A stretch of DNA of 64,000 nt from Candidatus Heimdallarchaeum aukensis (GTDB taxonomy: Archaea; Asgardarchaeota; Heimdallarchaeia; Heimdallarchaeales; Heimdallarchaeaceae). The translations under genes were made by a program, and so were the position numbers. Shown here piece by piece: positions 2,741 through 32,174 of the stretch. Below the pieces are notes generated by a model, which saw only the letters and a list, made by a program, of their open reading frames with translations, was not told where the DNA came from and did no database searches. The stretch's first letter is position 1. Each line of letters starts with the position of its first letter. The stretch spans positions 128,001-192,000 of the forward strand of contig CP084166.1 of the NCBI GenBank assembly GCA_021513695.1, written 5' to 3'.

Positions 2741-3187
2741 TTGTTCGATATATTTTTATTGTTCACTATATTTTCCATTTTAATGAACTCCAACTCAAAG
2801 AAAAGTGATGAAAGCACAATAAAAAAAGAAAACAAACAAAGCAATGACGTTATAAACAAGGCCAAAAAAAGTGCTGGTAAGACTGCGGAGAAAAAATCAT
2901 ATGAAGAAAAAGAAGAACTACTAATTAGTGAACTTAAATCTGTTAACAGATCATGGATAAAAAACCCCTATTTGTTTTGGATTTGTTTAATCGCAGGTCC
3001 TGCGTGGTTTGTTGGAGCATTATTTGTACCACTAGAAAGCACATTGTTAAGTTGGATACAAGCTATTTTCTTTTTCTTAAGTGTTGGTTTCTCAATTCTG
3101 CCATTAAGTTACTTGTTTAATCTTCTATGGATAGAATTACTTAAAAAACAAGAAAAAAAAAGAATTAGTCAAAAATCAGAAGAATAA
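2741..3187 (+). CDS. Hypothetical membrane protein with a Lys/Glu-rich linker
   Basis: The ORF has a TTG start (alternative ATG at 2783). It has a hydrophobic N-terminus, a charged low-complexity middle and two C-terminal TM helices (LFWICLIAGPAWFVGALFV, AIFFFLSVGFSILPLSYLF). Confidence 0.5.
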   Translation: MFDIFLLFTIFSILMNSNSKKSDESTIKKENKQSNDVINKAKKSAGKTAEKKSYEEKEELLISELKSVNRSWIKNPYLFWICLIAGPAWFVGALFVPLESTLLSWIQAIFFFLSVGFSILPLSYLFNLLWIELLKKQEKKRISQKSEE

Positions 3188-3298: not shown

Positions 3299-6200
3299 AT
3301 GAGTATAAAAAGCAAAAAAATTTTTTTGTCTTTTATTATTATTATGTTTATTACTTTAACAATAAATAGTGTAAAAGCTGAAGAGCAAGCAGCTCCTATT
3401 TTATATACGAAGTATTCTTCTTACACCAATATAGTTGAGTCAGTTTTTGACGAGAATAATCAAATGCATATTTTTCTCGGTCGTTCAGATGAATTTAATT
3501 ATAAAATCTTACATATCTTTAATGGAGAAGCGATACTCATTGATGCTGGTGTAAATAACATAGAAAGATTTTTCAAAGCAAAAATCTTCCCTGGAGGAGT
3601 TGCATTATTCTATTTAGATCACGATATTACAAAAGGAGATACATTATACTATTATTATTATTTCATAAATAACGGTTCACATGGCCTCAAGGTAATAACA
3701 AAATCAGGATTAGCATCTAATTATAAAATCAATATATTTCAGGATAACTCCAGATTTACAATTATTACTTCGTATAGTATTTCCTATTATACAAGTGCAA
3801 TAAAAAGCTTTAACTGCAGTTTTAGCGGAGAAATTTTAGACTCTGAAAGTTATGATGTTGAAGTCTCAATTTACAAGATAAAAGGATTCGTCTTTCAGAA
3901 TGAAAAAATATTCTTTTATTTTTACAAAGATGTTTATAACGCTAGTGCTTACCTCTCTTTTCTCTATGTTCAAGGGATAAACGAAAATGGACATATTTTC
4001 AATTCGAGCGTAATTGAATATCCTAATAGTTATTCAGAAACAATTATAACGCAAGGAATCAAAAAAGATTTTTATATCCAAACTATACAAGATGGTCAAA
4101 TTTTTTATTATTCTTTTAATGAAAATGAGACTTTTAGTTTCAGTGACTATAATTCTGCAGATTTTTATATTTACTATTATAACGAATATTCTATCGAGTA
4201 CACAGGTAATTGGATAAACACGACTTTCATAGAGTATGAATACATGTATTATAGTGACTTCTCTTATTCTTCAACTATTAACATTTTAGCTATCGTTACT
4301 TCATATAATTCAGAACAAATGTTGTTTGCAAAATTTGAAAAAACTATAACTTTTCAAGAAAGCTTTTTCCAATACTCAGTAGACATTGCTCTCGATGGTC
4401 CTTATTATTATATGTTTATTGCCACTAAAAGTACTGAAAAAATCCACTTTAATGAAACTGAAGTTTTAGGATTATATGTTCTCACAGATGATCCTAATTT
4501 TGTTCCACCTAAAGAACCAATATACTATGAAATCAAGCATATCTCCAATTTTACCTATTTCATGAAAAATTATTGGTGGACCCTTTTAATCGGTTTCGGT
4601 TTCATTGGTGGAATGTACGGTATTTTCCACAAGAGGATTAATAAGTCAATTCGCAAAATGAAAAAATTCCTGTTAAGACCTGTTGTGGACAATGTTTCTA
4701 CTGCTAAACTAATTTTAATCAACATTTGGCTATTTTTCTTTAATACTTATAGTTTAGTTCTTTCTTTGTGGAGAGTTAATAAAAAAAGACTAATAATAAA
4801 CATTCTTGGTCTTTCAATTCTTGCGTTTGTTCTGATAAACACTTCAGTACTTTATAATTCAGAACAGGCAACTGTTCTTCAGAAATATTTTGACAACCAT
4901 GACTTTGGTTCTAATTATGATACTTCTGTAGATTTTACAAAGACATTTATTGAACAATCAAAAACCGCTGAAAATATTTCCTTAATTAATGAAAATTATA
5001 CTTTATTAGCTGCAGAAGATATAATGAAATCTTTGAAACAAAAAGCTCCTACTTTAGCTTCCTTAATAGTTGATTATCAACTAACCAGTTTAATTACTAT
5101 CACAGGTTCAAACGTTACTTACGGAAATGAAGATATTCAATATTATTCAATAAACTCAAGCTATAATTTTGTTTTACAATCACTACTAGTTAATGGTACT
5201 TTGCCTAATAAAAAAGGAGAAGTAATTGTTTCTAGTAGTGTTGCTGAATATTATGACTTTCAAGTGGGTGAAGTAATACAATTTCAAGCAGTAAGCTATA
5301 AAGGTGCTTTCCTAAATTATGATGTAGTCAACCTAACTGTTTCTGGAATTTTTTCTAGTATTGGTTACAATACTTTGCGACAACTATGCGCAGATAATGA
5401 TCTACCATTTGATCCTGTTAGATATCTTACCTCTAACATGTTTTCAGCTATCGCTTTTAACAAATACTTCTTAAAAAATCTAGAAAATATCTCTTTAGGA
5501 CAACTAACCTTGTACGGAGATTTAGAGTTTATTTATGACTTTTCTTCGCTTGATCTAGAATCCTTTGAAAAACTAGTTGAAGAATATGAGTATTTAACTG
5601 AAAATCCTACTCAATACTTTAAATTTGATCCCAATGGTACCTGGTCATTAAGTTACGAGTTACGATATGTTATAATATATTTCCAATATGACCTAATAAT
5701 CATGCGGTTTTTAATCTATTTACTAACAATACCTATAGTCTTCTTAGCTTTATTTTTATTAAGTGAAGTTAACTCTATCTTTGCTTCAAGTTTTAAACAA
5801 GAGATAGAAATATTACAATCCCAAGGATTATCTGTTGGAAGAATAACTTTCATTTATTCTTCAATGAAATTCGGAGAGTCAGTTGTTGGAACAGTATTTG
5901 GACTTCTTGGAACATTTATATTTACACCAATTCTTTTAAAAGTTGATAAATTTCTACAATTTACGAACCCAATTTATCATTTTACTTTAAAGGGTAGCTT
6001 ATCTACAATTTTCATAACCTTTTTTGCTTTAATCATAGCTTCTCTCCCTCGAATTATTAGATTGGCAAAACAATCTGAAAAGAAACAAAAAGAACCAAGA
6101 AGATTTGTAACTCTAATAAAACGATTAAGAATACATTACTTTTTAGTCGTTATTTTTGGCGGAATTATTGCTTTCGGGGGATATTATTTAGCTGCTATTT

Positions 6201-7579
6201 TCACTTGGGTTTTTGAAGATTCATTTACTTCTCTCCTTGCTGTTTTTGTCAGCTTAATGGGAATAGGAGCTATGATTTCTATTTTCGGTATCGGATTAAT
6301 AATCAGAGAATTACATAATCTTCTCCTCATAATAGTCAGTAAATTGTCTTGGAAAGTTAAGAAATCTATAGGTTCCTTTTCATTAATTGAAGTTCGTTCT
6401 GATGCTAAGTTATTTACAAATACCTTTTTCTCATTTCTACTAATAATAGCTTTTGTAGTCCCTTCAATTATTGTTCCTTTGGCAATACAGGACCATTTCG
6501 TAAATATATCTTATTTCTCTTCTGGATCAGATGTTTATATTTCTAGCTGGTCTCTGTATAATGCTTCTAAGTCAAATATTACTTCTTACGATGAAGTAGT
6601 AAGTGTTGCTAATATTAGTGTTATAGAAACTACATATGGAGAACTCAACTTCCGTTTTCTAGTAATAGATAATTTAACAGAGTTCCGTTCTACAATATAC
6701 GATGTTCCAAAATACATAATGCCTGATTTTGATGAACTTCTATCCAAATTAGAACAAAATGATACTATGCTAGTAAGTAAGTTGTTTAACAAAGTTTTTC
6801 TTTCTCCTGAAACTTTTACCTTCACATCAGCTAATGAATCACTCAATAAAGAAATTCGAGTTGGAGGAGAGTTTACATACTTCCCTATCTTTTTCTTTGG
6901 CGATCGGTGGTTAAACGATAATTTTGAAATTTATTATTACGATTACATATGGTTTACTTTTCATATTGTCTTGACAAATCAAACTTTTACAGAAATCAAA
7001 GAAACTTTGAAAACACCTACTGTAGTTGTTGATAGACTCTTAATCAAACTTAAACCTAATTCTAATCCCATTAAATTTACTGAAAAAATTAAAAGAGATC
7101 TAAATATTGATTCAAGAAGTACGAAAGAACTAGCTGACTCAACTCTGTTTCAAGCCTATCCTTTCTATAGTGTTTTAACTTCGATGTTTGTTTATACAAT
7201 ACTAATGAGTATATTTGCAGTTGCTTTTATCAGTCTGAGTAATCCTTTGAAACTCTTGATACAGAAATCATCAAAGAATGACATTTTAAGAAAACTGGGT
7301 GTAAGGGTGAATAGAATTATTAACATATCTGCTTTTGAAATCTTTGTTTCAAGTTTTATACCTGGGATGATTCTTGGAGGACTTAGTGCCTACGGATTGT
7401 ATGTATTTTTCAAATACATTTTTATTGACTTTGGTTGGCGCGGTCTACCATACAAGAGTTACATGTTCTTCCCTGTTACTGGCGTTGTTATAGGCATATT
7501 TGGAGCATTATATTATGTCATCTTCTACTTCTCTATGAAGATGAATTTCTATAAATATAGACCTAGAAATTTGGAGTGA
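3299..7579 (+). CDS. Giant MacB/FtsX-type ABC permease (two FtsX modules plus ~430-aa N-terminal ectodomain), locus 1
   Basis: Signal/anchor MSIKSKKIFLSFIIIMFITLTINSVKA. The ectodomain is rich in Tyr/Phe/Asn with many N-x-S/T sequons. There are two MacB-like units: TM RLIINILGLSILAFVLINTSVL, FtsX-like EIEILQSQGLSVGRITFIY... and, near the C-terminus, ILRKLGVRVNRIINISAFEIFVSSFIPGMILGG. The stop overlaps the ATPase start. The track start at 3260 is TTG; the ATG at 3299 is preferred. Confidence 0.8.
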   Translation: MSIKSKKIFLSFIIIMFITLTINSVKAEEQAAPILYTKYSSYTNIVESVFDENNQMHIFLGRSDEFNYKILHIFNGEAILIDAGVNNIERFFKAKIFPGGVALFYLDHDITKGDTLYYYYYFINNGSHGLKVITKSGLASNYKINIFQDNSRFTIITSYSISYYTSAIKSFNCSFSGEILDSESYDVEVSIYKIKGFVFQNEKIFFYFYKDVYNASAYLSFLYVQGINENGHIFNSSVIEYPNSYSETIITQGIKKDFYIQTIQDGQIFYYSFNENETFSFSDYNSADFYIYYYNEYSIEYTGNWINTTFIEYEYMYYSDFSYSSTINILAIVTSYNSEQMLFAKFEKTITFQESFFQYSVDIALDGPYYYMFIATKSTEKIHFNETEVLGLYVLTDDPNFVPPKEPIYYEIKHISNFTYFMKNYWWTLLIGFGFIGGMYGIFHKRINKSIRKMKKFLLRPVVDNVSTAKLILINIWLFFFNTYSLVLSLWRVNKKRLIINILGLSILAFVLINTSVLYNSEQATVLQKYFDNHDFGSNYDTSVDFTKTFIEQSKTAENISLINENYTLLAAEDIMKSLKQKAPTLASLIVDYQLTSLITITGSNVTYGNEDIQYYSINSSYNFVLQSLLVNGTLPNKKGEVIVSSSVAEYYDFQVGEVIQFQAVSYKGAFLNYDVVNLTVSGIFSSIGYNTLRQLCADNDLPFDPVRYLTSNMFSAIAFNKYFLKNLENISLGQLTLYGDLEFIYDFSSLDLESFEKLVEEYEYLTENPTQYFKFDPNGTWSLSYELRYVIIYFQYDLIIMRFLIYLLTIPIVFLALFLLSEVNSIFASSFKQEIEILQSQGLSVGRITFIYSSMKFGESVVGTVFGLLGTFIFTPILLKVDKFLQFTNPIYHFTLKGSLSTIFITFFALIIASLPRIIRLAKQSEKKQKEPRRFVTLIKRLRIHYFLVVIFGGIIAFGGYYLAAIFTWVFEDSFTSLLAVFVSLMGIGAMISIFGIGLIIRELHNLLLIIVSKLSWKVKKSIGSFSLIEVRSDAKLFTNTFFSFLLIIAFVVPSIIVPLAIQDHFVNISYFSSGSDVYISSWSLYNASKSNITSYDEVVSVANISVIETTYGELNFRFLVIDNLTEFRSTIYDVPKYIMPDFDELLSKLEQNDTMLVSKLFNKVFLSPETFTFTSANESLNKEIRVGGEFTYFPIFFFGDRWLNDNFEIYYYDYIWFTFHIVLTNQTFTEIKETLKTPTVVVDRLLIKLKPNSNPIKFTEKIKRDLNIDSRSTKELADSTLFQAYPFYSVLTSMFVYTILMSIFAVAFISLSNPLKLLIQKSSKNDILRKLGVRVNRIINISAFEIFVSSFIPGMILGGLSAYGLYVFFKYIFIDFGWRGLPYKSYMFFPVTGVVIGIFGALYYVIFYFSMKMNFYKYRPRNLE

Positions 7580-9333
7580 TAAAAGTGATACAAGCTGATG
7601 ATTTATTAAAAGTATATTATGACCCTATTACTGAATACAAAGTTGCTGCTTTAAGAGGGTTATCTCTTGATATTAAAGAAGGTCAGTTAGTTAGTATAAT
7701 AGGCCCTTCTGGTTCAGGTAAAACAACCTTAATTAACATTTTAGCCGGACTTGATGTTCCTACAGGTGGAAGAGTAATTGTTAAGGGTCAACAATTAGAT
7801 AAAATGACAGAAAGAGAAAGAAGAGAGTTTAGGTATTATAATATTGGTTTAATTAATCAGTTTATAAGCCAGAACTTGTTTCCAAGACTCACTGTAATAG
7901 AAAATCTGATGATACCTAAACGTATGTTTTGTCTTCCTCATGAAACAGCTAAAAAAGAAGTAGAAGAGTTACTCGAACTTTTGAGATTAAAGCATATAGC
8001 AAAGAATAATGTAGAAAAAATATCTGGAGGAGAAGCAATTCGGTTGTCTCTTGGAGTAGCCTTAGCAAAGAATCCTGATATTTTGTTGTGTGACGAACCT
8101 ACAGGTCAATTAGACAATATGCATACTAAAGAAGTAGTTGAAACTATTAAAGATGTAAATATTACCATGGGTAAAACAATACTTGTAGTTACCCACGATA
8201 TTCGCTTTAGGACTGTTTTTGAACGAAGTTTCATCATTCGTGATGGCCGTCTTGCTGGAATTAGTGTGGATATTAATAGGAATCAACTAGAATTTCTTAT
8301 GGAATCTTCTGAAATGAAGAGATCTTATGTAGACCCTTCTAATTTCGCTAGAATTCCAGATGAAATAAAACGCAGTTTAGGCATTAAAGACACTGTTGAA
8401 TATGATCTTCATCCTTCGAAAAAGATTGGTTTAATTTGGAATCCTGATTTGATAACTAGAGAAGATATTTTCCACATATTAAACAACCCAGAAGAAGAGT
8501 ATGAAGAGACAGTAGATCAAATAAGCTATGAAGATGTAGAACCTATTCTCTCTCGAAGTTTTGTACCTCCTGAAAAAGAAGAACCTATTATTAAAATAAG
8601 TAATTTGAAGAAAGGATATCCTTCTCCAGCTGGATATAATCTTGTACTAAAGGGTATTAACTTATCAATTAATAAAGGAGATTTTGTTTTTATTTCTGGT
8701 CCCAGTGGAGTAGGTAAGACTACGCTCTTTAATTGTATTTCAGGATTAGATAAGATTGATGATGGACATGTAGAAATAATGGGTTTTGATATCAAAAACC
8801 AACCAGAACCTCTTATTTCTGATTTTAGATTAAAGCACATATCTTATATCACTCAGCACAATAACCTTTTTGAACCGCTATTAGTTGAAGATAACCTTTT
8901 CTTACCTTATTTGTTTTTAGGAGAGAAGATAGATATAGATTATGCCAAAAAAATAATGAAAGAATGCTTTATTGATCATAAAATTAAGTCTTACCCTGAT
9001 GAACTTTCTGCAGGAGAAAAACAACGTGCAGCACTAGCTACTAGTTTGGCAAGGAAAACATCTATCCTTATTGCTGATGAACCCACTGCTAATCTTAATT
9101 CTGAACTTGCCCGTTCAATAATTAATCTTTTTATGGATATATCTAAGCTAGAGCAAAAAACAGTTATTATCTGTTCTCATGATTTGAGTTTATTACGTCC
9201 AGGATTTAGACATATTCGTCTATCAGATGGTCAGATAGCGGAAGATTATCGTGTAACAAAAGAGCAATTACAAGAGATTATTACAGAATACCTTAGCATT
9301 CAAAAGAACAAAAAAAATGAATCTATTACGTAA
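7576..9333 (+). CDS. ABC transporter ATPase with two fused NBDs, locus 1
   Basis: NBD1: Walker A GPSGSGKTT, signature ISGGEAIRLS, Walker B ILLCDEPT, H-loop VVTHD. NBD2: GPSGVGKTT, LSAGEKQRAA, ILIADEPT, ICSHD. A ~110-aa inter-NBD linker contains ARIPDEIKRSLGIKDTVEYDL (AbrB/SpoVT-like pattern). The GTG at 7576 overlaps the permease stop; an alternative GTG lies at 7585. Confidence 0.9.
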   Translation: MIKVIQADDLLKVYYDPITEYKVAALRGLSLDIKEGQLVSIIGPSGSGKTTLINILAGLDVPTGGRVIVKGQQLDKMTERERREFRYYNIGLINQFISQNLFPRLTVIENLMIPKRMFCLPHETAKKEVEELLELLRLKHIAKNNVEKISGGEAIRLSLGVALAKNPDILLCDEPTGQLDNMHTKEVVETIKDVNITMGKTILVVTHDIRFRTVFERSFIIRDGRLAGISVDINRNQLEFLMESSEMKRSYVDPSNFARIPDEIKRSLGIKDTVEYDLHPSKKIGLIWNPDLITREDIFHILNNPEEEYEETVDQISYEDVEPILSRSFVPPEKEEPIIKISNLKKGYPSPAGYNLVLKGINLSINKGDFVFISGPSGVGKTTLFNCISGLDKIDDGHVEIMGFDIKNQPEPLISDFRLKHISYITQHNNLFEPLLVEDNLFLPYLFLGEKIDIDYAKKIMKECFIDHKIKSYPDELSAGEKQRAALATSLARKTSILIADEPTANLNSELARSIINLFMDISKLEQKTVIICSHDLSLLRPGFRHIRLSDGQIAEDYRVTKEQLQEIITEYLSIQKNKKNESIT

Positions 9334-9386: not shown

Positions 9387-9770
9387 ATGAAAAAAAATGT
9401 AAGAACACAAGCTAGAGATACTTTAGATTTTCTAGGAAGAATGAGAGTTTATTTCTTAAGAGGGCATAATAGTTGGTTTTACCTAGTTTTTTATTTTGTA
9501 AATTTCACATTAATTTTCTACAACCTACTAATAGAAAAACTATATTTTATCCCAGACTGGGTTTCATTCTGGAAATTCGCCTTGCTTTTTATTATTCTTT
9601 ATCCTCCTATTGCAATAATTGTAGGTAGATTCGATTATAGAAAGGGGACATATAAAGGAGAACAAGAAGTTCAATTAGCAGTAAATCCTCTATGGAAAAA
9701 AAATTTCCAGCGTCTAGATGACTTAGAAAGAGAAATTAAAGAGTTAAAGAACTTATTACTTCAAAAATAG
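9387..9770 (+). CDS. Small two-TM membrane protein with C-terminal coiled-coil tail
   Basis: 127-aa ORF with TM segments WFYLVFYFVNFTLIFYNLLI and FALLFIILYPPIAIIVG and the tail LDDLEREIKELKNLLLQK. It sits between the ABC ATPase and the large surface protein on the same strand. Confidence 0.55.
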   Translation: MKKNVRTQARDTLDFLGRMRVYFLRGHNSWFYLVFYFVNFTLIFYNLLIEKLYFIPDWVSFWKFALLFIILYPPIAIIVGRFDYRKGTYKGEQEVQLAVNPLWKKNFQRLDDLEREIKELKNLLLQK

Positions 9771-9818: not shown

Positions 9819-12758
9819 ATGAAAAAGTCTACACTCTTTTTTCTTCTATCTTTTCTAATTTTAAATATATCAAGTTTAATGTATGGATCATCTAATTCTA
9901 ATGTGAATAAGTATGTTGTTTCTTTAAATAGTAAGAATTTAGATTCTACAGAAGACACAATTTCATACCAAATAGAATCAAGATCTTATTCTCGCTCAAT
10001 TAGGAAAGATACTACAAACTACTATAGTTGGATAGAAAGTAGAAGCCTTTCAAGTGCAAAAGATCTAGCATTCTTCATGCTAGAGCAATTCGATTTTAAC
10101 TCAATACAAGTTACAAATGTTCATGATCTGGCTTTAGTTCACTTTGCAATAGCTTATATTGACCTTTTCTTTGCCACTTACAATCCTGATTATCTTTATA
10201 CAGCTCACTGGATTGTTAATAATAGTCTATTTTTAGATATAAACAAAAATATGATTGCTCTAGATACAAAAACTACCGACTATAAGGTATTTGCCTATGA
10301 TAATCTTTACTTGGTTTTAATGTATGAAAGATTTGCCAAAGCTTATGAAGCAACCTTTGATTTTCTAGTTGCTGATACTTTTTGGACTCTAGCTGATAAT
10401 TTGATGAACAATATTACAACTATTTTTTATGATGAAACTAATCACATTATCAAAGAATATGCTTTTATTTCAAGTACTGATTGGTCTGTTATTAATTCAT
10501 CTAGTTACACAACAGCAGAAATAGCTGGATTATACTCCATGGCTTCTCATGGTCTTAAGGATCCTACAAGCTACCATTCTCAAAGTTATGATGTAATTAA
10601 ATACTATTTCAACAACTATATTCAATATGTGAATCTAGGCGAAGGGTTCGATCGTTGGGCACCACTTAAAGGAACAAATCCGGCGATTAATGATACTCTC
10701 GCATTTACTGGAAGTGTTTTCTTGTCTTCTGCATACTTCTATGAAAGTAAGTACTTAAAGAGTCAAGGAAATACAACTTATGAAGATTTATTCTTTGTAT
10801 ATGGACAATGGTTGTTAGAGGATGCTCTAGCTATATTTTATAATTCAGAATACAATTTGCCGGTGTCAACGTATAACATTACTTCTAGCACTAAAGGAAC
10901 TATTATTTCAGCGTTTGATAGTACATTAGCTGCATTAGCTCTTAGAGAGTTTAATAGATACCATCTAGAGAAATATGGTTTTTCTCCAGGTGAACTTGCT
11001 ATTTCCATAATTACTACAACACAGGGTGTTTTCAAGACAGCTAATTTTTACGATCCTGGATTATCTACAGATCAAGGAATTTTTTCCTATAAAATAGATG
11101 AATATAGGAAAAACCCCTTTGTTATCAATTCAATGGCAATTTCAATGGAATTAAAGAAATATGCGTTAGCAGCTGATTTATCTGTTCCTGAATTTATTTA
11201 TACTAATGAAACTGTTGACATTTTCTGGACTATTTTCTGGAGTGAGAGCACAAATATCTTTAGTTACTCTAATGCCTCTTTTGCTACAAGTTTTGATTTT
11301 ACAATAGACAGTGTTCTTAATTTCACAGCTAACGATACTATAATAATAAATACATTTTCCATTGACGCTGTCCAAGTTACAGAACCCACTAGTTTCTATG
11401 TAAACACTACAGTAAGTGAAGGAGGAGATTACTACCCGAGATTCACCATTTCTATAGGTGAAACAACTGTAATTGATCATGAAAGTAGCATTTACGTTTT
11501 AAGAGAATTAAGGGTATACACTGATCCATCTAGGATTCAAGCGACTCAAGGGGTTGATGAATATTTAGAATTCTCTATCTTATGTGAAGATGAAAAAGGT
11601 ATTTCAGTACCAAAAGTTTCTTTATCTCTAACTTGGCTCGGTAATACTACTAATGTAATTTCAAACAATGCTGGTTCATATGATTTTAAAATGTCAGTGA
11701 AAGATATTTTAGCTCTACCAGAATTTACAAACAATCCTGATGAAAATCCAAGATTTGATTTCGAAATATATGCAACTAAAGATGGGTTCGTTGAATTTTG
11801 GTTAATTAAAACCATAACAATAAGAAGAAATGCTCTTATTCTTGAACTCTCACAAGATTTAGCTGTGAAAAGAGGAAATGATTTGACACTAACTATAGGC
11901 GTACAACCTCAAATACAAACATTAGTTCTTAATCCTAAAGCTTCAATCTATCTGAACGGTGAAGATATTTCAAATGAAGTTTCTCAAAGTATGGACCCAA
12001 GATTTGCTCCGAAGTTAATGCCTATTCCTCTTCCAGCTCAAATAACTTTACCAACAAAAGATTTGAAAGAAAATGCTAATTTAGTTATTGAGATAACAAG
12101 TAATAACTTTCCAACAGAACGTTTTGAGTATGAGATCGAAATAATACCGTTAAACACTTTTGAAGCTATTTATCAATGGTTATCTGACGTGTTCTCATCA
12201 ACTCTAGGGAAAATACTAGGTTCTCTCAGTGTTATTTGGGCAGTTCTGTGGAAACAATTCTCTCTCTATGTTCTACACATTATTAAACGCTGTCCCTATT
12301 GTGGTGAAACAGTGAAAAGAAGATATTCAACTTGTAGATATTGTGGAAACATAATTGATAGGTCAAAGTATGTTCAAACAAAAATGAAATTTTTACCTGA
12401 AGATACAGAGCATGATCATAATCCAAAAAACAATTTTAATCTTGATAAAAATCCAAGTCCAAAAGAAAATCTTAAGTCAAAAGATTCAGGTTTAACTTCA
12501 ATTCCTTTCGATGAGAACACTTATACAGAGCCTAAGTCTCCTTCTGAAGATACTTATACAGAGCCTAAGTCTCCTTCTGAAGATACTTATACAGAGCCTA
12601 AGTCTCCTTCTGAAGATACTTATACAGAGCCTAAGTCTCCTTCTGAAGATACTTATACAGAACCTGAGCCTTCTTCTGAAGATGCTTATACAGAACCTGA
12701 GCCTTCTTCTGAAGATACTTATACAGATTCAGAAAAAGATGAAAGCAATTGGTTTTAG
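9819..12758 (+). CDS. Large secreted/surface protein with C-terminal TM anchor, cytosolic zinc ribbon and repeat tail
   Basis: Signal peptide MKKSTLFFLLSFLILNISSLMYG and a ~800-aa ectodomain with many N-x-S/T sequons. TM segment ILGSLSVIWAVLWKQFSLYVLHII is followed by CPYCGETVKRRYSTCRYCGN (CxxC-x10-CxxC) and then 11-aa repeats TYTEPKSPSED. Confidence 0.75.
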   Translation: MKKSTLFFLLSFLILNISSLMYGSSNSNVNKYVVSLNSKNLDSTEDTISYQIESRSYSRSIRKDTTNYYSWIESRSLSSAKDLAFFMLEQFDFNSIQVTNVHDLALVHFAIAYIDLFFATYNPDYLYTAHWIVNNSLFLDINKNMIALDTKTTDYKVFAYDNLYLVLMYERFAKAYEATFDFLVADTFWTLADNLMNNITTIFYDETNHIIKEYAFISSTDWSVINSSSYTTAEIAGLYSMASHGLKDPTSYHSQSYDVIKYYFNNYIQYVNLGEGFDRWAPLKGTNPAINDTLAFTGSVFLSSAYFYESKYLKSQGNTTYEDLFFVYGQWLLEDALAIFYNSEYNLPVSTYNITSSTKGTIISAFDSTLAALALREFNRYHLEKYGFSPGELAISIITTTQGVFKTANFYDPGLSTDQGIFSYKIDEYRKNPFVINSMAISMELKKYALAADLSVPEFIYTNETVDIFWTIFWSESTNIFSYSNASFATSFDFTIDSVLNFTANDTIIINTFSIDAVQVTEPTSFYVNTTVSEGGDYYPRFTISIGETTVIDHESSIYVLRELRVYTDPSRIQATQGVDEYLEFSILCEDEKGISVPKVSLSLTWLGNTTNVISNNAGSYDFKMSVKDILALPEFTNNPDENPRFDFEIYATKDGFVEFWLIKTITIRRNALILELSQDLAVKRGNDLTLTIGVQPQIQTLVLNPKASIYLNGEDISNEVSQSMDPRFAPKLMPIPLPAQITLPTKDLKENANLVIEITSNNFPTERFEYEIEIIPLNTFEAIYQWLSDVFSSTLGKILGSLSVIWAVLWKQFSLYVLHIIKRCPYCGETVKRRYSTCRYCGNIIDRSKYVQTKMKFLPEDTEHDHNPKNNFNLDKNPSPKENLKSKDSGLTSIPFDENTYTEPKSPSEDTYTEPKSPSEDTYTEPKSPSEDTYTEPKSPSEDTYTEPEPSSEDAYTEPEPSSEDTYTDSEKDESNWF
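12519..12727 (+). repeat. In-frame 33-nt tandem repeat (6 full units plus a partial unit)
   Basis: The unit acttatacagagcctaagtctccttctgaagat starts at 12519, 12552, 12585 and 12618 (four perfect copies). Variant units (gaacctgagccttct) start at 12651 and 12684, and a partial unit starts at 12717. It encodes TYTEPKSPSED / (T/A)YTEPEPSSED. Confidence 0.9.
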
Positions 12759-23031: not shown

Positions 23032-24774
23032 TTATTTGTCATTGATTTTTACTTGTAAGAAATACTCAATTATTTCTTTCAAATCTTTCTTTGTTATACG
23101 TTTATCTGACTGAATTCCACCTTTTTCTAAGACTATGTGTCTCATTCCTGGTCTTAACAAACTAAGATCATGCGAGCAAATAATTACTGTTGTTTGTAAT
23201 TTTTCTGCAACATCCATTAATACATCAATTATGGCTCTTGCCAAATCACTATCTAAATTAGCTGTTGGTTCATCTCCTATTAGAATAGGCGTTTTTCTTG
23301 TTAATGCAAGTGATAAGGAAGCTCGTTGTTTTTCTCCAGCAGAAAGTTCATCAGGATAAGCTTCTAACTTATGTTTTATTTGACATTCCTCAACCATATT
23401 TAGAGAGTACTCTTCATCATAGTCTAATTTAGAAAACAGATAAGGGACAAGAAGATTATCTTTAACTGTAACAGGTTCAAAGAGGTTATTATGCTGAGTG
23501 ATATAAGCAATGTTCTTTAATCTAAACATTGATGTTTCATATTCATCTTTATCATGAAGTGAAACATTATTGATAATTATTTCTCCTTTATCTGCTTTTA
23601 CAAGTCCTGTAATGCAATTAAAAAGGGTAGTTTTTCCTACTCCACTGGGCCCAGTAATCATTACGAAATCTCCTTTTTTAACTTCTAAGTTAATGTTTTT
23701 TATTACTTGATTATAACCTGCTGGAGAATGATATCCTTTGGAAACTCCTTTTAATTGCAAAATATTTTCTCTACTCTCTATGAAGTTGAATTTTCTGCTA
23801 ATAATTTTTTCAATTTCTTCATAAGAAATTTCTCGAGATTCTTTAATCGCTTCGTCAACTGGTTTATTCAAAATCTTGTATATTTCTTCTCTATTTACTA
23901 TATCAGGATTCCAAAATAAACCAAGAGATCCAGCAGGATGAGCGTCAAATTCTACTACATCATAAAGCTTTGTTTTCATCTTTATTTGATCAGGTATTCT
24001 AAGAAGGCTATTTTTATCTAAGTAAGCCCGATTATTTGTAGAAGAACTTGTCATAAATTCAAGTTTATCTTTTTCCATATCTTGACTTACTCCTACTAAT
24101 CTCCCATCTCTAATGATAAAGCTATGTTTGAATACATTTCTAAAGCGGATATCGTGAGTCACAACAACAATAGTTTTACCCGTGTTCTCGTTAATATCTT
24201 TTATAGTATTAATTACTTCTTTAGTATGCTCAGTATCTAATTGACCTGTAGGCTCGTCAAGAAGTAGAAATTTAGGATTTTTAGCTAAGGCTGCACCTAA
24301 AGATAAACGCATAGCCTCTCCACCAGAAATGCGAGAAACGAGATTATTTCGCACATGATATAAGTTTAACAGTTCTAAAATTTCCTTGACTTCTCTTCTG
24401 GCTTGCTCTCTTGGAATGTAAAATAATTTTTTGTGTATCATAAGATTCTTTTCAACAGAGAGATTTGAGAATAAGTTATCGCTAATATTTTGATTGATCA
24501 ACCCAATGTATCTGAATCTGAACTCTCTTAGTTGTTTTTGAGACATTTTTTCTAAATGATGGTTGTCAATAATGACTGATCCTCCAGTAATATCTTCTAA
24601 GCCAGATAAAATCTTGATTAATGTGGTTTTTCCTGCTCCAGAAGGACCAACTATACTTACAAGATCACCTTTTTCTACATATAAATCTAATCCTCTTAAA
24701 GCAGCAACTTTATAATCAGAATGAGGGTCGAAATAAATTTTAAATAAATCAATACATTGTATCATTTTTATCAC
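23032..24774 (-). CDS. ABC transporter ATPase with two fused NBDs, locus 2 (paralogue of 7576-9333)
   Basis: GPSGAGKTT / ISGGEAMRLS / LLLDEPT / VVTHD, then GPSGVGKTT / LSAGEKQRAS / ILIGDEPT / ICSHD. It is collinear with the locus-1 ATPase, including the linker LRIPDQIKMKTKLYDVVEFDAHP. The GTG at 24774 overlaps the permease stop; an ATG lies at 24765. Confidence 0.9.
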   Translation of the reverse strand: MIKMIQCIDLFKIYFDPHSDYKVAALRGLDLYVEKGDLVSIVGPSGAGKTTLIKILSGLEDITGGSVIIDNHHLEKMSQKQLREFRFRYIGLINQNISDNLFSNLSVEKNLMIHKKLFYIPREQARREVKEILELLNLYHVRNNLVSRISGGEAMRLSLGAALAKNPKFLLLDEPTGQLDTEHTKEVINTIKDINENTGKTIVVVTHDIRFRNVFKHSFIIRDGRLVGVSQDMEKDKLEFMTSSSTNNRAYLDKNSLLRIPDQIKMKTKLYDVVEFDAHPAGSLGLFWNPDIVNREEIYKILNKPVDEAIKESREISYEEIEKIISRKFNFIESRENILQLKGVSKGYHSPAGYNQVIKNINLEVKKGDFVMITGPSGVGKTTLFNCITGLVKADKGEIIINNVSLHDKDEYETSMFRLKNIAYITQHNNLFEPVTVKDNLLVPYLFSKLDYDEEYSLNMVEECQIKHKLEAYPDELSAGEKQRASLSLALTRKTPILIGDEPTANLDSDLARAIIDVLMDVAEKLQTTVIICSHDLSLLRPGMRHIVLEKGGIQSDKRITKKDLKEIIEYFLQVKINDK

Positions 24775-27700
24775 TCCAAATTCATAGGTTGATATCTAGC
24801 AAATTGCATTTTCATTGTCATGTAGAATATAGAGAAAAACATAACAGGAATAACTAGAAAAATTATCACCGCAATAACTGGTGGAAACTGAATAGGATTA
24901 GGCAATATCTCTTGCCTTAGGCTTCTTAACACTCTTCGTATAATTTCAGTTATTGTAAAACCTACTGCTGTACCACTGATTATTCCAGGAAGAATTCCAA
25001 TCATGAATAATTCAAAGGAACTCATTTGAATTATAAGTTTGTTAGGTATACCCATCTTCTTAAGAATGTCATGCTTACCCATTCTTCTTTGCAATATCTT
25101 AAGAGGATTACTCATACTTGTAAATACAATAGAGATTATGCAAATTAATAATGAAAAAACAAATATTGAAACTATCGAAGCATAAAAGGGAAGATTGGTA
25201 CGGTAAATTTCTTGTTCTTCTTCAACTATGTTAATGATTTCTAGATTGTATTTCTCTTCTAAACTTGAAGAAAATTGAACTATATCCGTTTTTTCTTCAA
25301 CATTTATTAATAATCTATAACCAAATACTCCAAAAACGGTTAAACTCTCTTCTATTTTCTCATAATTGCTCTCTGTTAGAACAATCATAGGAGTTCCTCC
25401 CGATTCTCGTGGACCATAAGGATAGATTATGGGGAAATAGTCAAACTCATCTATTATCTTCACTTCTACGTCATCGAATGAGTATTTCATTTCGCTAATA
25501 TCAAAGAAAAACTTGAAGTTGCTAGAAACAATTATCTCTTTATCGTTATCCAGTTGAGGAATAATATCATCCCAATTTTTGTAAAATCTTTCTGAAGGTT
25601 TATACGCTGTATTATAGAAATCCGAAGCTTTTTGAATCACTAAAAGATTTAACTGTCTTCCTCCAAACATTGCGTCAACTTGAGAAACGTTACATATGCC
25701 GATTACTTCGGGAAGAATTTTAATTTCATCACTGATACTGGAATTAACGTTATTGTAATTGCTTATATACATATCAGCTCCTGCCATAAAGTAAGAATCT
25801 TTTATTATCCCATTCTGCATTGTTAGAGGAGCAGCTATTGCAGGAACAGCAATTCCTACCAAAAGTAAATAGGTCAAGAAAATATCATTAAACAATGAAA
25901 GATCTGTTTTTACTTCAACTAATGAGAAAGTGAATATATTCTTCTTAATTTTCCACAAAGTTTTGCTTAAAACTGCCATAATAAAAGAGTGAAGATCTTT
26001 TAAAATTAGTCCTAAACCGAATAAAGATATCATTACTCCAATTCCAATAATATACACGAAAATGTTTATCAATTGGTTATCTGAAGAAGAAAGATTTTCG
26101 CTGAAAGTTAGATATAGTTTTAGTCCTCCGTAAATTATTCCTCCTCCAACAGCAATAATAATGAAGTTGCCGATTTTCACCTTTTTAAGAAAAGAAACAA
26201 ATTTGTTATAATCTCTTATTTGCTCCTTCTTTATTTTTGCCATTCTTATTGTTAAAGGTAAAGTAATAATTATTAAACCAAAGAACGAAATTGTGAAAAT
26301 TAAAGGAAGATTCTTTAACGAAGGCATTGTAGAACTTAGATTGAAAGAGACAAATCTATCTAATTTTAATAAAATGGGAATAATCAGTATTGCTTCTCCT
26401 AAACCTAAAAAGGTTGCAATAAGTGATTCTACAAATTTCATTACTGTGTTCAGATAAACTATTTTTCCAGTTGACAACCCTTTGGAACGGAGAATTTTAA
26501 TTTCTTCATCAAAACTTGTAGCAAATAAGGCATTTGTTTCAAAAATCAAGAATAGTGCAAGGTAAAGGACAGGTATTGATAATAAAACAATTAGAAATTG
26601 AGTAGAGGAATAGGAAGGAACTAAACTTTGCAATACTAGTTTTAATTCAGTTGAAATAACCCAAGAACCACCTAAATCAAATTTTACAGGATGATCGTAA
26701 CTTGGTTGTAAAATGTCAAAATCATTTATTAGTTTTCCAATATTTTTAGAATTAACTAAAGAAAAATCATAGAAAAATTGAACTATACCATCAAATTTCA
26801 GATGTTGAACTGGCATAGTTTTTAAACTTGACAGATAAAAATCATTGAAAGTTATTGCACCGATGTATTGTGAAATCATTTCTATGAGATCATATGATAA
26901 TCCATAATCTCTACTCATCTTAAATAATGAAGGTTCTGTTGGTTTTTCGTAAATCCCTACAATAGTCATGTTCACTCTTTCTTTTAAACCTCCAACAGAG
27001 ACATCTGCACCAACAAAGACAATAGTGTCGTTTATTGTTTTATTGAAAGCTGTCGCTGTAGTTTGATCGATTATAACTTCATTGATTTTATCAGGTAACC
27101 TACCTGAAACTAGAATTCTTCCCAAAATATCCTTATAATTAGTAGATAAGGAATAATATGATTCTACGCTCTGAACTGTACTCTCAGTATCCTTCTTAAA
27201 TAGAATTCGCATTTGCATTGAATAATCAGAATCAATAATTATATCCTTCAAAACTTCAGTTTTAAAAGCGATAGTTGAAAGAATCTCGTTCATAACAGCA
27301 GAAGAAAAATTCTCGTAAAAAGGTGAGTATTCATTTACTCTCCCCCATCTCGCGGAAAGAACATTATGCATTCTCGAAAACGTAGCTGAAGCTTTTTCAT
27401 CTTCTTCTAAATGAGCATCTTCTAAATATTGTTGTATCATCATGTTTTGTTTATATGAAAAGAGTGAAGAAGAAGAGAAAACAATCATTGCCAAAATTGA
27501 TAAGCCTAGTATTGTTATTATAGCTCTCTTTTTGTTTGATCTCCATAAATCGAAAGGAAGACTCAATGAACTTACAATAAAAACCCATAGATTGAGAAAT
27601 ACTAAAACAAATTTACTTTTTCCAGTTTTTATAGGTCTAAATAAAAACCTAAATAGTTTTTTTCCTTGATTTACTATTTTTTTGTAAAATATGGCTATAA

Positions 27701-29045
27701 ATAGTAAGAGAATTGAGATAGCTATTGTAAATTCAATCCAATGTATTCTAAAAACATATTGAAAGAAGTTTACTAAAGTTAGATCGTAAATAACAGGTCT
27801 TATAATACTGTTGAAAGATAAATTACTATTTGAATAAATTAAAACAGAAAAGACATTAGGTTCTACTATAACTTTGTTTTCTAGTTGAGTATCATGAAAT
27901 CTCTGTGTTCTACTAACTAAAAAAGTAGTAGGAGATTGAAAATTGATATGAGTCGAGTCGAAAACCGTAATGTTTGAAGTGAAAGGAATATCAATAAATT
28001 GTTGAGTAATATTTTTTCCATTATATCTTAAAATAGTAAATTCAGTAATTAAATCAGCCTTAGAATTACTTGAATTAAGAGGTAAGTGGGGATTAGGGTT
28101 GATTAAGAATGTTATTGACGAATCAAAAGAGTAGTGATACAAGTCATCATATGAATACATTCCCAATTGAAATTCACTAAAGTTTTCAAAAGAAAGACTT
28201 TCGTTCAATTTAAAATTATGAGTATAGAATGTTGATCCTTTAATTAGAGCCAAGTTTAGTGTAGTTTGATTAAATACCGATAAATAAACATCATAATCAG
28301 TATTGAAAAGAAGATAGTTACTTAAATAAGGGTCATCGTTTATGATATATATTCCAACTAGCCTTGTTGGGAAAAACATATACTTGTACAATGCAACTAA
28401 TTTTCCATCAACAAGTAGCAATGTTTGAATGCCATTATATTCTAAATCTGTAAACCAATTTTCAGTGCTTGAAGTTCCATTTAGAAAAACTGTTAATTTT
28501 TTAAATTTAGTCTTTGGGTGCTCATCCATTGCCGATTCAAACATTGGTTCTGCAAACAGCAAATAGAAAGAGTTTTCTATAAACTGAACATTATAGATAA
28601 AATAATTTCCAAAAAAACTTGAATGGTAAATCAAGAAATTACTTTTGTTTTGTTCTGATTCCCAAACATACATTTCAATATTGAATTGCCCAAAGTTTCC
28701 ATGATATGAATAGAACAATACTATTTTGTTATCAATTCTAAAGGTGTCAAAAATTGTTCCTGGACTTAAATCTGTTTTAATCTTTGATATATTTCCTTCA
28801 AACAAATGAAAGATAGTGAAGGATTGATTTTCTAATTCCATTTTTATGAATAAGTGTAATCTTTCTTGAGTGTCTAACACCGCTCTTGTTTCTAAATCTA
28901 CTATTGTTTCATAAGCTTGAAAATAACCTATAACCTCTTCTTTAACTTCTGGATTTTCAGTTATATCAGCACTTATTAGCAAAGAATTATAATTTAAACT
29001 TAATATAGACGCTATTAAAATAAACACGAAATATTTTTTTTCCAT
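24771..29045 (-). CDS. Giant MacB/FtsX-type ABC permease, locus 2 (paralogue of 3299-7579)
   Basis: Architecture matches locus 1: signal MEKKYFVFILIASILSLNYNSLLISA, an aromatic/Asn-rich ectodomain, and two FtsX-like modules (EIKILRSKGLSTGKIVYLN..., ILKKMGIPNKLIIQMSSFELFMIGILPGIISG). The track start at 29195 overlaps the divergent MFS gene, so the ATG at 29045 is preferred. Confidence 0.8.
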   Translation of the reverse strand: MEKKYFVFILIASILSLNYNSLLISADITENPEVKEEVIGYFQAYETIVDLETRAVLDTQERLHLFIKMELENQSFTIFHLFEGNISKIKTDLSPGTIFDTFRIDNKIVLFYSYHGNFGQFNIEMYVWESEQNKSNFLIYHSSFFGNYFIYNVQFIENSFYLLFAEPMFESAMDEHPKTKFKKLTVFLNGTSSTENWFTDLEYNGIQTLLLVDGKLVALYKYMFFPTRLVGIYIINDDPYLSNYLLFNTDYDVYLSVFNQTTLNLALIKGSTFYTHNFKLNESLSFENFSEFQLGMYSYDDLYHYSFDSSITFLINPNPHLPLNSSNSKADLITEFTILRYNGKNITQQFIDIPFTSNITVFDSTHINFQSPTTFLVSRTQRFHDTQLENKVIVEPNVFSVLIYSNSNLSFNSIIRPVIYDLTLVNFFQYVFRIHWIEFTIAISILLLFIAIFYKKIVNQGKKLFRFLFRPIKTGKSKFVLVFLNLWVFIVSSLSLPFDLWRSNKKRAIITILGLSILAMIVFSSSSLFSYKQNMMIQQYLEDAHLEEDEKASATFSRMHNVLSARWGRVNEYSPFYENFSSAVMNEILSTIAFKTEVLKDIIIDSDYSMQMRILFKKDTESTVQSVESYYSLSTNYKDILGRILVSGRLPDKINEVIIDQTTATAFNKTINDTIVFVGADVSVGGLKERVNMTIVGIYEKPTEPSLFKMSRDYGLSYDLIEMISQYIGAITFNDFYLSSLKTMPVQHLKFDGIVQFFYDFSLVNSKNIGKLINDFDILQPSYDHPVKFDLGGSWVISTELKLVLQSLVPSYSSTQFLIVLLSIPVLYLALFLIFETNALFATSFDEEIKILRSKGLSTGKIVYLNTVMKFVESLIATFLGLGEAILIIPILLKLDRFVSFNLSSTMPSLKNLPLIFTISFFGLIIITLPLTIRMAKIKKEQIRDYNKFVSFLKKVKIGNFIIIAVGGGIIYGGLKLYLTFSENLSSSDNQLINIFVYIIGIGVMISLFGLGLILKDLHSFIMAVLSKTLWKIKKNIFTFSLVEVKTDLSLFNDIFLTYLLLVGIAVPAIAAPLTMQNGIIKDSYFMAGADMYISNYNNVNSSISDEIKILPEVIGICNVSQVDAMFGGRQLNLLVIQKASDFYNTAYKPSERFYKNWDDIIPQLDNDKEIIVSSNFKFFFDISEMKYSFDDVEVKIIDEFDYFPIIYPYGPRESGGTPMIVLTESNYEKIEESLTVFGVFGYRLLINVEEKTDIVQFSSSLEEKYNLEIINIVEEEQEIYRTNLPFYASIVSIFVFSLLICIISIVFTSMSNPLKILQRRMGKHDILKKMGIPNKLIIQMSSFELFMIGILPGIISGTAVGFTITEIIRRVLRSLRQEILPNPIQFPPVIAVIIFLVIPVMFFSIFYMTMKMQFARYQPMNLE

Positions 29046-31379: not shown

Positions 31380-32174
31380 TTATAGTTTTTTTATATATTC
31401 GATTATAGAATTAAAATTATTATTAGTTAGAGAAGAGTATACAATCAGATTTTTCTGTAAGAACGAAATTTCTTCCAGCTTTTTGCTTATTCTTTCAAAG
31501 TTTTTAGTTGTATTTTTAATATCACTTTTTGTTAAAATAAATGACATTCTAAGTTTATTCTCATCTTCAATTTTCTTCAGAATTGCAAAAATTCTTTCAT
31601 ACAAAGATTCTTTGTAGATAAAGCCATAGTCAAGAACAAAAAAGATCGCATCAAAGTTATTTTCGACTTTTTCATTTAGATAATATGAAATCAAATCCAT
31701 ATTTCCGCCAATTTCTGTAATTTTTAATTTTTTTCCAAGGAAATAAAATTGAGATGTGGAAATTCCGATATTATGAAGTTTAGTTCCCAAAAAAGCATTG
31801 TAATTTAATCTGTGAATAATACTCGATTTTCCACATTTACTAAAACCAATTAGTAGAATGTTGAGTTGTTTATTTTCCTTTCTTGAGATTGAATATTGTA
31901 CTTTGAATTGATTTTTTTGTCCAAAAGTAATTTTGGTAGAATATTGACCTAGAATTGAGCCTGTTGATTCAATTATTTTTCCAAAACCATCAAAAATGCT
32001 TATACCAAGAATAAATTCTTCAGGAATTTTTTCTAGGAGTTGAAGGAGAAGTGATTTGATAGATATTTGATTTTGTAAATAAAATGACAATTTGTTATGG
32101 AATTCATTATTTTGAACTATTTGTCTTAGCAACTGTGTGGCAATTGTATCTTCTTTCACGTTTATTAAGTTCAT
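31380..32174 (-). CDS. Divergent Arf/Ras-superfamily small GTPase with ~100-aa N-terminal extension
   Basis: G1 LLIGFSKCGKSS, G3 TEIGGN (compare Arf WDVGGQ), G4 LTKSD (NKxD variant), G5-like YSSL. The N-terminal extension contains LLLQLLEKIPEEFILGISIFDGFGKIIESTG. Confidence 0.7.
   Translation of the reverse strand: MNLINVKEDTIATQLLRQIVQNNEFHNKLSFYLQNQISIKSLLLQLLEKIPEEFILGISIFDGFGKIIESTGSILGQYSTKITFGQKNQFKVQYSISRKENKQLNILLIGFSKCGKSSIIHRLNYNAFLGTKLHNIGISTSQFYFLGKKLKITEIGGNMDLISYYLNEKVENNFDAIFFVLDYGFIYKESLYERIFAILKKIEDENKLRMSFILTKSDIKNTTKNFERISKKLEEISFLQKNLIVYSSLTNNNFNSIIEYIKKL

Follow-up and report, generated by a model that had tools for sequence, protein, structure and literature searches.

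Our analysis suggests that each of two inverted gene pairs in the window, by which we mean the whole 64,000-nucleotide stretch of the Candidatus Heimdallarchaeum aukensis genome (contig CP084166.1, positions 128,001 to 192,000), probably encodes a complete ABC machine of type VII, the MacB/FtsX superfamily, in only two polypeptides: a permease with the layout of YbbP and a fused ectodomain, and an ATPase with two nucleotide-binding domains (NBDs) in tandem. From its sequences, the family appears to have what marks a type VII system, namely FtsX-type modules, a MacB_PCD-like (Porter/Sabre) domain between TM1 and TM2 that is predicted to lie outside the membrane, and NBDs of the LolD/MacB/FtsE clade. 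Nearly all known type VII ABC systems are bacterial, and they serve there in the sorting of lipoproteins, in cell division, in efflux and in the clean-up of the membrane; to our knowledge eukaryotes have no FtsX-type transporters. What looks new here is the fusion of NBD to NBD in a type VII system, an inter-NBD linker found in this family only, and an orphan ectodomain of about 400 aa with an extra transmembrane (TM) helix.

Two paralogous gene pairs and their relatives

Locus 1 lies on the forward strand (3299-9333) and locus 2 on the reverse strand (23032-29045), and in each a permease of about 1425 aa stands immediately before an ATPase of about 580 aa with two NBDs in tandem. Permease 1 (3299..7579, 1426 aa) is 100% identical to NCBI P0121, which NCBI names 'hypothetical protein' and UniRef 'ABC3 transporter permease'. 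Only 5 nt separate its stop from the start of ATPase 1 (7585..9333, 582 aa), whose longest open reading frame begins at 7576 and whose annotated GTG start at 7585 has its own GGAG 8 nt upstream. On the reverse strand, permease 2 (24771..29045, 1424 aa) shares the topology of permease 1 as judged by hydropathy, and ATPase 2 (23032..24765, 577 aa; longest-frame start 24774, annotated start 24765) is 100% identical to NCBI P0053. The earlier note had described the loci as inverted paralogues, and they are: the reading frames lie where it placed them, the ATPases are 58% identical from end to end, and the permeases are 32% identical over a region confined to the C-terminal ~1030 aa, while their N-terminal ectodomains are only about 13% identical in a multiple alignment. 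The genes around both loci are housekeeping genes and offer no clue to function.

The same architecture recurs in relatives. In all 11 related loci a 1395-1460-aa reading frame directly precedes the ATPase, and each of 15 further metagenome loci, found by a DNA pattern for HDLSLxRPGFR, has two Walker A motifs and the linker. For most of these 15 the directly upstream frame is giant (1248-1462 aa) or reaches the contig end; L108 and L109 have no upstream frame. An unfused version of the ATPase was found at none of the surveyed loci, and two NBDs in one chain are present in all of them as well as in 39 of 39 aligned homologues. The earlier note had proposed a survey of the fused architecture, and in the one reported here the gene pair recurs wherever related loci have enough upstream DNA. 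There are three paralogues per genome, and the synteny of each locus type is conserved. Downstream of locus-1-type operons we also observe a surface protein with a signal peptide, about 900 aa long, in four of six genomes; it is absent from L087 and L089.

Other searches help to define the scope of this survey. L016, L024 and L025 were considered as NBD fusions and rejected, being adjacent separate NBD genes. A scan of genome contigs with the ATPase alignment, which relied on generic Walker A patterns, returned ordinary single-NBD genes and is no measure of how widely the fusion has spread, and a word-index search for permease homologues returned three close relatives and missed the paralogue in the same genome. 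A search of the literature yielded no report of this system from Heimdallarchaeia.

The permease and its predicted outside domains

Hydropathy gives the order signal peptide, ectodomain of about 400 aa, one TM helix, TM1-ECD1-TM2-4, two linking TM helices and TM7-ECD2-TM8-10, that is, a predicted topology of 1+10 TM helices and three outside domains. The predicted Sec signal peptide of permease 1 (3299..3379, + strand, aa 1-27) has a hydrophobic stretch at aa 7-25 and an A-x-A-like site, where cleavage would fall between SVKA and EE. The ectodomain that follows (3380..4588, +) was described by the earlier note as rich in Tyr, Phe and Asn and laden with sequons, a description that its composition (11.2% Tyr, 9.5% Phe, 7.4% Asn) and its 8 sequons bear out, the sequons being candidate glycosylation sites. 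Permease 1 as a whole has 28 N-x-S/T sequons, 24 of them inside the three predicted outside domains, and permease 2 has 19. The ectodomain has no known family: Pfam gave no match at E<=1, the PDB profile search gave none, and neither search pointed to an enzyme family or a catalytic motif. It can be aligned over 13 homologues at 11-26% identity, with D51, H57 and F59 conserved. The extra TM helix that would anchor it (4592..4648, +; aa ~432-450) is placed by alignment to permease 2, where hydropathy calls it at aa 436-454; the aligned segment of permease 1, WWTLLIGFGFIGGMYGIF, is slightly below threshold.

The earlier note had claimed two FtsX modules per permease, and both are supported. Module 1 (4694..6088, +), placed by Pfam and hydropathy, comprises an interfacial helix, TM1, a MacB_PCD-like extracytoplasmic domain 1 and TM2-4, and the TM2-4 region has the coupling-helix motif EIEILxSxG in the family consensus. 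In permease 1 it matches Pfam MacB_PCD at 22.7 bits and FtsX at 21.6 bits (FtsX E 2.3e-4); in permease 2, which matches FtsX in two stretches as well as MacB_PCD, module 1 reaches 28.4 bits for MacB_PCD against a cut-off of 27. Module 2 (6386..7576, +) comprises TM7, extracytoplasmic domain 2 and TM8-10 and is placed by hydropathy and by Pfam matches of homologues: segments holding module 2 only match FtsX in 10 of 13 homologues (best E 4.6e-7), and when the module is taken alone the permease 1 copy falls short of the FtsX threshold and the permease 2 copy scores 18.7 bits. FtsX-like coupling-helix motifs are present in the family consensus of both modules. The Pfam matches of the permeases are weak, most of them below gathering scores. 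The loops of about 280 and about 225 aa predicted between TM1 and TM2 and between TM7 and TM8 would form the two extracytoplasmic domains (ECDs). Between the modules lie two linking helices, TM5 and TM6 (6125..6337, +; hydropathy peaks at aa 949-967 and 980-1013), the counterpart of the two interceding helices of YbbP and BceB (PMC5985334).

Profile comparisons did not extend these matches. The family permease profile found no PDB chain at E<=1, either for the whole permease or for module 2; hhalign of module 1 against module 2 was not significant; and hhalign of a 13-sequence core profile against E. coli YbbP aligned only 40 columns (probability 11.9%), which is not significant. Because the module-module and YbbP comparisons are not significant, we base the YbbP-like layout on hydropathy and domain matches and not on subfamily homology.

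The tandem-NBD ATPase and its linker

Each ATPase contains two ABC_tran domains (E about 1e-62; 7.5e-63 in ATPase 1), which are 32% identical to each other, and both were complete, as the earlier note had held: each keeps Walker A, Q-loop, signature, Walker B Glu and H-loop, invariant across 39 homologues. The best NCBIfam families are LolD, then FtsE, bacteriocin-export and DevA; since these whole-protein scores add up two NBDs, passing the LolD cut-off does not make the protein a LolD equivalog, and the FtsE score is inflated in the same way. The best PDB sequence matches of the NBDs are PsdA/BceA, LolD, MJ0796 and YtrE, all of them type VII partners. In the AF2 model of ATPase 1 both NBDs have pLDDT 80-93, and the chain with both NBDs best matches OppD (TM 0.70/0.67) and DppD (TM 0.67/0.74) of M. 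tuberculosis.

Between the NBDs lies the linker (8311..8586, +; aa ~246-337 in 585-aa numbering), about 90-110 aa long and conserved in the family. It is built of a core, SYxDxSNFxRIPDEIK...VEFDxHPSKK....WNP, a variable acidic stretch and a conserved helix, ISFEDVEPLLSRxF. That it is conserved in both paralogues, as claimed before, holds more widely, with D253, P261, H279, N289, P290 and F329 invariant in 39 homologues. Among 1.84 billion representative proteins searched it is confined to this transporter family, in sequences of Heimdallarchaeaceae type; one apparent match, P0127, was discarded as a repetitive junk translation. AF2 gives it the secondary structure strand, helix, strand, strand, helix, helix, with pLDDT below 50 within the full chain and a mean of 65 when modelled alone.

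Could the linker be a true SpoVT/AbrB swapped-hairpin half-barrel, pairing two ATPase chains or transporters, or pairing with another AbrB-like protein, in a regulatory or even DNA-binding role? We regard this as possible, though on balance rather doubtful. The segment RIPDEIK...VEFD followed by a strand has the order and spacing of the AbrB strand-helix-strand-strand unit, and the strand, helix, strand, strand order predicted by AF2 would suit half the fold. Compared by hhalign with a hand-typed AbrB/MazE alignment, the linker core lines up with AbrB/MazE/SpoVT N-domains over 34 columns in the register that the earlier note had proposed (P=0.0013, probability 18.5%), and among 350,542 PDB chains Foldseek ranks an AbrB N-domain second (E 4.6, not significant) and a further AbrB entry fourth. 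Moreover, a fold that exists as an obligate dimer is expected to yield low confidence when modelled as a monomer. However, SpoVT_AbrB (PF04014) has no match at E<=10 in the linkers of the window or of 25 family members, the linker has no PDB sequence match, and neither the sequence nor the structure comparison is significant. The linker is also unlike AbrB in being present as one copy per chain, in the ATPase of a transporter in the cytoplasm, and in lacking the Gly-Arg that is conserved in the DNA-binding loop of AbrB. As for a nearby AbrB-like partner, the candidate frames 2154-2702, 2741-3187 and 9387-9770 are small membrane proteins with no family match, and we set them aside. Thus the motif and its conservation stand, and the resemblance to AbrB is a lead, short of a finding.

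Comparison with known systems and proposed function

The nearest precedent for the layout is YbbAP-TesA (PMC12646458). YbbP consists of two MacB permease units linked by two TM helices, with two periplasmic domains (Greene et al. 2018, PMC5985334), and hydropathy gives the same core here: one chain that holds two FtsX/MacB units, the pair of linking helices and an extracytoplasmic domain for each unit, served by NBDs that are likewise LolD-like. Since the single-chain two-module core is already known from E. coli YbbP, the fused permease is not new. The earlier note had set both fusions against MacB-type systems that normally assemble from separate single-module subunits; YbbP and BceB, which have two modules in one chain, show that this was overstated for the permease, and the NBD-NBD fusion does depart from the norm. 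Greene et al. 2018 (PMC5985334) state that fused TM domains always go with an NBD on a chain of its own, and the NBD-NBD fusion is the sole departure from that description. YbbA is indeed a separate protein with one NBD, two copies of which are used; in the present family both NBDs are fused via a linker of about 100 aa. Further differences are the size of the permease, which adds a signal peptide, an ectodomain of about 400 aa and one TM helix to what in YbbP is 804 aa, and the gene order, with the permease first here and ybbA first in E. coli. Because the system is archaeal, there is no periplasm or outer membrane here, unlike in the host of YbbAP.

LolCDE, MacB and FtsEX share with the present family the four-helix module of FtsX, an outside domain resembling MacB_PCD and NBDs of LolD/FtsE type, and by analogy we expect mechanotransmission, in which the membrane offers no path for a substrate, here too. 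Their permease modules are separate chains in LolCDE (LolC/LolE) and FtsEX (an FtsX dimer) and are fused to the NBD in MacB; none has an NBD-NBD fusion. Such a fusion does occur in OppD (Rv1281c) and DppD of M. tuberculosis, the best whole-chain matches to the AF2 model, which have two NBDs per chain and form an intramolecular dimer. Those proteins, however, belong to peptide importers of type I, with unrelated permeases, a substrate-binding protein and an unrelated linker, so that the fusion is analogous and the family a different one. We rejected an importer reading of the present loci: there is no gene for a substrate-binding protein nearby, and we know of no importers that employ the FtsX fold.

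How would such a two-chain machine work? From what is known of MacB, LolCDE, FtsEX and YbbAP, we infer that both NBDs of a chain come together head to tail around two ATP molecules, forming an intramolecular dimer, and that coupling helices and TM stalks would relay the NBD movement to the outside domains. The work would then be done outside the membrane, and by analogy it would most likely be to extract or expel a molecule, hydrophobic or lipid-linked, from the outer leaflet, or to drive a surface partner. YbbAP-TesA itself has a partner outside the cytoplasm and is proposed to pull hydrophobic molecules out of the membrane. In the present family the ectodomain fused at the N-terminus may stand in for the separate partners of bacterial systems (TesA, EnvC, LolA, MacA). 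Fusion would set the permease:ATPase ratio at 1:1 and could let the two ATP sites specialise, and the linker would be a tether at minimum and possibly a regulatory or docking module. A bolder version, in which this is an envelope machine complete in itself and restricted to Heimdallarchaeaceae, with the ectodomain as a built-in partner driven by the ECDs and the linker as a degenerate AbrB half-barrel that pairs transporters or recruits a partner and so couples the ATPase to an oligomeric or regulatory state, strikes us as a long shot.

Two other functions have to be weighed. An FtsEX-like regulator, in which ATP-driven motion of the outside domains toggles a surface hydrolase or remodelling enzyme and no substrate is moved, would make good use of the fused orphan ectodomain, which is well positioned as a controlled partner; alternatively the enzyme could be a neighbour, such as the 979-aa surface protein. 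Locus-1-type operons are followed by a surface protein of about 900 aa in four of six genomes. FtsE is moreover the second-best NCBIfam family. The inflation of that score, the lack of any enzyme signature in the ectodomain and the absence of the downstream protein from two of the six genomes lead us to consider this reading improbable. We think it very unlikely that the loci form a BceAB-type module for resistance to or sensing of antimicrobial peptides, which would release lipid-cycle intermediates bound by peptide antibiotics and pass a signal to a kinase. BceAB and PsdAB of Bacillus do come close, as BceB, too, joins two FtsX modules and 10 TM helices in one chain and is served by two NBDs (PMC5985334), PsdA and BceA are among the best single-NBD matches in the PDB, and NBD2 is closest to BceA. 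However, BceB has one large extracellular domain (TM7-TM8), NBDs on separate chains and a coupled two-component system, whereas here two ECDs are predicted besides the N-terminal domain, and no histidine kinase or response regulator adjoins either locus or is found in the 11 related loci. Three paralogues in stable housekeeping synteny also resemble core envelope genes rather than accessory resistance cassettes.

Our preferred reading of a type VII machine in two polypeptides means that an archaeal branch of these systems pairs fused permease units with fused NBDs, an arrangement that reviews call absent, and that it does so with a linker and an ectodomain for which no relatives were found beyond one Asgard family. 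The result has no direct bearing on eukaryogenesis. With its fixed asymmetry of NBD1 and NBD2, the system would lend itself well to testing whether a MacB-type motor assigns different jobs to its two ATP sites. The envelope of Heimdallarchaeaceae is essentially uncharacterised and, given three syntenic copies per genome, these machines are probably important for it.

Two operons and their fused subunits

Our ORF calls bear out, at both loci, the gene positions of the earlier note. At locus 1 (3299-9333, + strand), permease 1 (3299-7579, +; 1426 aa, identical to NCBI protein P0121) is directly followed on the same strand by ATPase 1, which is annotated from GTG 7585 (582 aa). Locus 2 (23032-29045, - strand) mirrors this arrangement, with permease 2 at 29045-24771 (-; 1424 aa) and ATPase 2 running from its annotated start at 24765 to 23032 (-). 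The longest ORFs of the two ATPases begin at GTG codons (7576 and 24774), 9 nt before the starts that NCBI and the homologues have in common; for ATPase 1 this gives a 4-nt overlap with the permease stop. Since the longest-ORF starts precede those used by NCBI and homologues, the real permease-ATPase junction is probably a 5-nt gap rather than a 4-nt stop/start overlap; GTG 7585 is the start common to homologues as well as the annotated one, and a GGAG lies 8 nt upstream of it. ATPase 1 matches the annotated Candidatus Heimdallarchaeum aukensis protein at 99.8% (tblastn) to 100% identity. The two ATPases share 58% identity end to end; the two permeases can be aligned over their C-terminal ~1030 residues only, at 32% identity, with 13% over the N-terminal ~400 residues in a 13-sequence alignment. 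The same genome encodes, outside the window, a third paralogue (P0105, 47% identical), and in several further genomes a single contig bears two or three paralogues.

By hydropathy, each permease begins with a signal peptide with an A-x-A-like site, a ~400-aa ectodomain, one TM helix and a basic cytoplasmic stretch, followed by a core consisting of TM1, a ~280-aa loop, TM2-4, two more TM helices, TM7, a ~225-aa loop and TM8-10. The earlier note had proposed two FtsX modules in one chain, and the Pfam scans agree, although the matches are weak: MacB_PCD matches the first loop with 28.4 bits in permease 2 (cut-off 27) and 22.7 bits in permease 1, FtsX matches TM2-4 in permease 1 and TM8-10 in permease 2, and the second module scanned alone matches FtsX in 10 of 13 family members (best E 4.6e-7). 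A single FtsX module per permease thus fails as a description, because both modules draw Pfam matches. In the family consensus, TM2 is followed by EQEIEILxSxGLS and TM8 by KNDILKKMGI, both coupling-helix motifs of the FtsX type. Comparisons of module 1 with module 2, and of the core with E. coli YbbP, were without significance, and the family profile found no chain in the PDB. The N-terminal ectodomain, rich in Tyr, Phe and Asn, is the fastest-evolving part of the permease in the 13-sequence alignment and has no relative in Pfam or PDB searches. In permease 1, 24 of 28 sequons fall inside the three predicted outside domains, a placement that fits the predicted topology, with glycosylation itself putative.

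Each ATPase chain contains two ABC_tran domains (E about 1e-62), which share 32% identity. Among curated families, LolD, FtsE, a bacteriocin-export ATPase and DevA match best; among solved structures, the nearest in sequence are PsdA/BceA, LolD, M. jannaschii MJ0796 and YtrE, every one an NBD partner of FtsX-type permeases. Across 39 aligned homologues, Walker A, the Q-loop Gln, the Walker B Asp-Glu and the H-loop His are retained in both NBDs, as is the signature, which reads (I/L/V)SGGE in NBD1 and LSAGE in NBD2; because the motifs of both halves are kept, both ATP sites look catalytic. In an AF2 model built from the same alignment both NBDs reach pLDDT 80-93, with a pTM of only 0.54; its best solved matches over both NBDs are M. 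tuberculosis OppD and DppD (TM 0.67-0.74), both of them single-chain tandem-NBD ATPases. The model is consistent with NBD1 and NBD2 forming an intramolecular dimer.

The inter-NBD linker

The linker is tripartite. A conserved core (SYxDxSNFxRIPDEIK..., VEFDxHPSKK, WNP) leads into a variable acidic stretch, which is followed by a conserved helix, packed onto NBD2 in the AF2 model. The conservation of the linker stands as the earlier note described it; its supposed AbrB-like character fares less well. Neither SpoVT_AbrB (no match at E<=10) nor a sequence search of the PDB matched the linker. When hhalign was run against a hand-made alignment of AbrB, Abh, SpoVT, MazE, Kis, ChpS, Sso7c4, VapB and PrlF sequences, it aligned 34 columns in exactly the register the note had suggested, with P=0.0013 and a probability of 18.5%. 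Within the whole-chain AF2 model the linker has pLDDT below 50; when it is modelled alone from 48 sequences the mean is 65, and the elements run strand, helix, strand, strand, helix, helix. Foldseek against 350,542 chains gave no significant match, the AbrB N-domain ranking second (E 4.6) and another AbrB entry fourth. All the positive AbrB signals trace back to one short motif. We consider true homology to an AbrB-type domain rather doubtful. Searched against 1.84 billion representative proteins, the linker profile returned two full-length clusters and two fragments, all of its own family, and no free-standing or differently placed relative; its other matches were repeat artefacts. Because only its own family is returned, the linker is, judged from sequence, a lineage-specific invention.

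Conservation and genomic neighbourhood

At 11 of 11 loci reached through ATPase homologues, an ORF of 1395-1460 aa lies directly upstream of the ATPase. Every named source falls under Heimdallarchaeaceae, Heimdallarchaeota or 'Asgard group'. Scanning JGI metagenomes with the NBD2 motif HDLSLxRPGFR as a pattern turned up 27 matches, of which 15 belong to the family, having both the linker and two Walker A motifs; most of these are directly preceded by a giant ORF (1248-1462 aa) or by one cut off at the contig end, while two (L108 and L109) have no ORF upstream. None of the matches was an unfused intermediate.

The paralogues can be told apart by synteny. Locus-1-type operons are followed by a ~900-aa surface protein (4 of 6 loci), an HD protein and UDP-glucose dehydrogenase, and locus-2-type operons by SerRS, a beta-eliminating lyase and a beta-CASP nuclease. 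In the window the surface protein (9819-12758, +; 979 aa) has a signal peptide, a large outside region, a C-terminal TM helix and a cytoplasmic zinc ribbon, as well as SEDTYTEPKSP tandem repeats. In the related loci L084, L088 and L090 the locus-1-type ATPase is followed by a counterpart of 893-909 aa, which L087 and L089 lack at that place; the protein could be a partner of the transporter or a mere neighbour. The UDP-glucose dehydrogenase of L089 (9361-12069) carries an intein (Intein_splicing and LAGLIDADG_3) that its window orthologue (14193-15518, 441 aa) lacks. Locus 1 is flanked by three small proteins (9387-9770, +; 2741-3187, +; 2154-2702, -) predicted to span the membrane with 2-3 helices, none with a family match; one, of 182 aa, has Cys-rich ends.

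The genes around the loci, among them those for an archaeal-type SerRS, an Arf-family GTPase, HEAT-repeat proteins and aldehyde:ferredoxin oxidoreductase, agree with a source in Heimdallarchaeaceae, a family of Asgard archaea. At 30534-32174 (-), a 281-aa protein that weakly matches Roadblock/LC7 lies beside an Arf-family small GTPase, a combination characteristic of Asgard 'eukaryotic signature' genes. Further along, a near-exact direct segmental duplication (41209-43417 and 44625-46765, spacing 3348-3350 bp) has in each copy a radical-SAM/wyosine-formation gene (321 versus 299 aa) together with a HEAT-repeat protein of 371 aa that is 100% identical between copies. An Eco57I-type restriction-modification methylase with a TaqI-like specificity domain (47170-49161, -) is followed by two paralogous TPR proteins of ~690 aa (49244-53474).

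Relation to known transporters and possible role

How unusual are these fusions? The earlier note had presented the fused permease as a departure, which the arrangements of the MacB superfamily listed by Greene et al. 2018 (PMC5985334) contradict: in view of that list, the permease fusion is of an already known kind. The NBD-NBD fusion is not among the listed arrangements, but tandem-NBD chains do occur in other ABC classes (M. tuberculosis OppD and DppD), so that the fusion as such is convergent and has precedent. The closest functional model is YbbAP-TesA, in which YbbAP works with the periplasmic partner TesA and has been proposed to extract hydrophobic molecules from the membrane (McAndrew et al. 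2025, PMC12646458). Whereas the bacterial partner is separate, the window permeases have an ectodomain fused at that place. The observation of the earlier note holds, and its interpretation is supported in part.

We propose that ATP binding would close NBD1 on NBD2 inside the single ATPase chain, and that this closure would be passed through both coupling helices of the one-chain permease and the TM stalks to the extracytoplasmic domains of the two FtsX modules, which would act, probably jointly with the N-terminal domain, on an outer-leaflet or surface molecule. The fusions would impose 1:1 stoichiometry and let the two halves diverge.

Within the type VII ABC class, the window systems are a family-restricted new variant, of moderate appeal to transporter and Asgard specialists. 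Given the housekeeping synteny, the lack of regulators nearby and the three conserved paralogues, we argue for a core role in the envelope rather than for an accessory resistance cassette.
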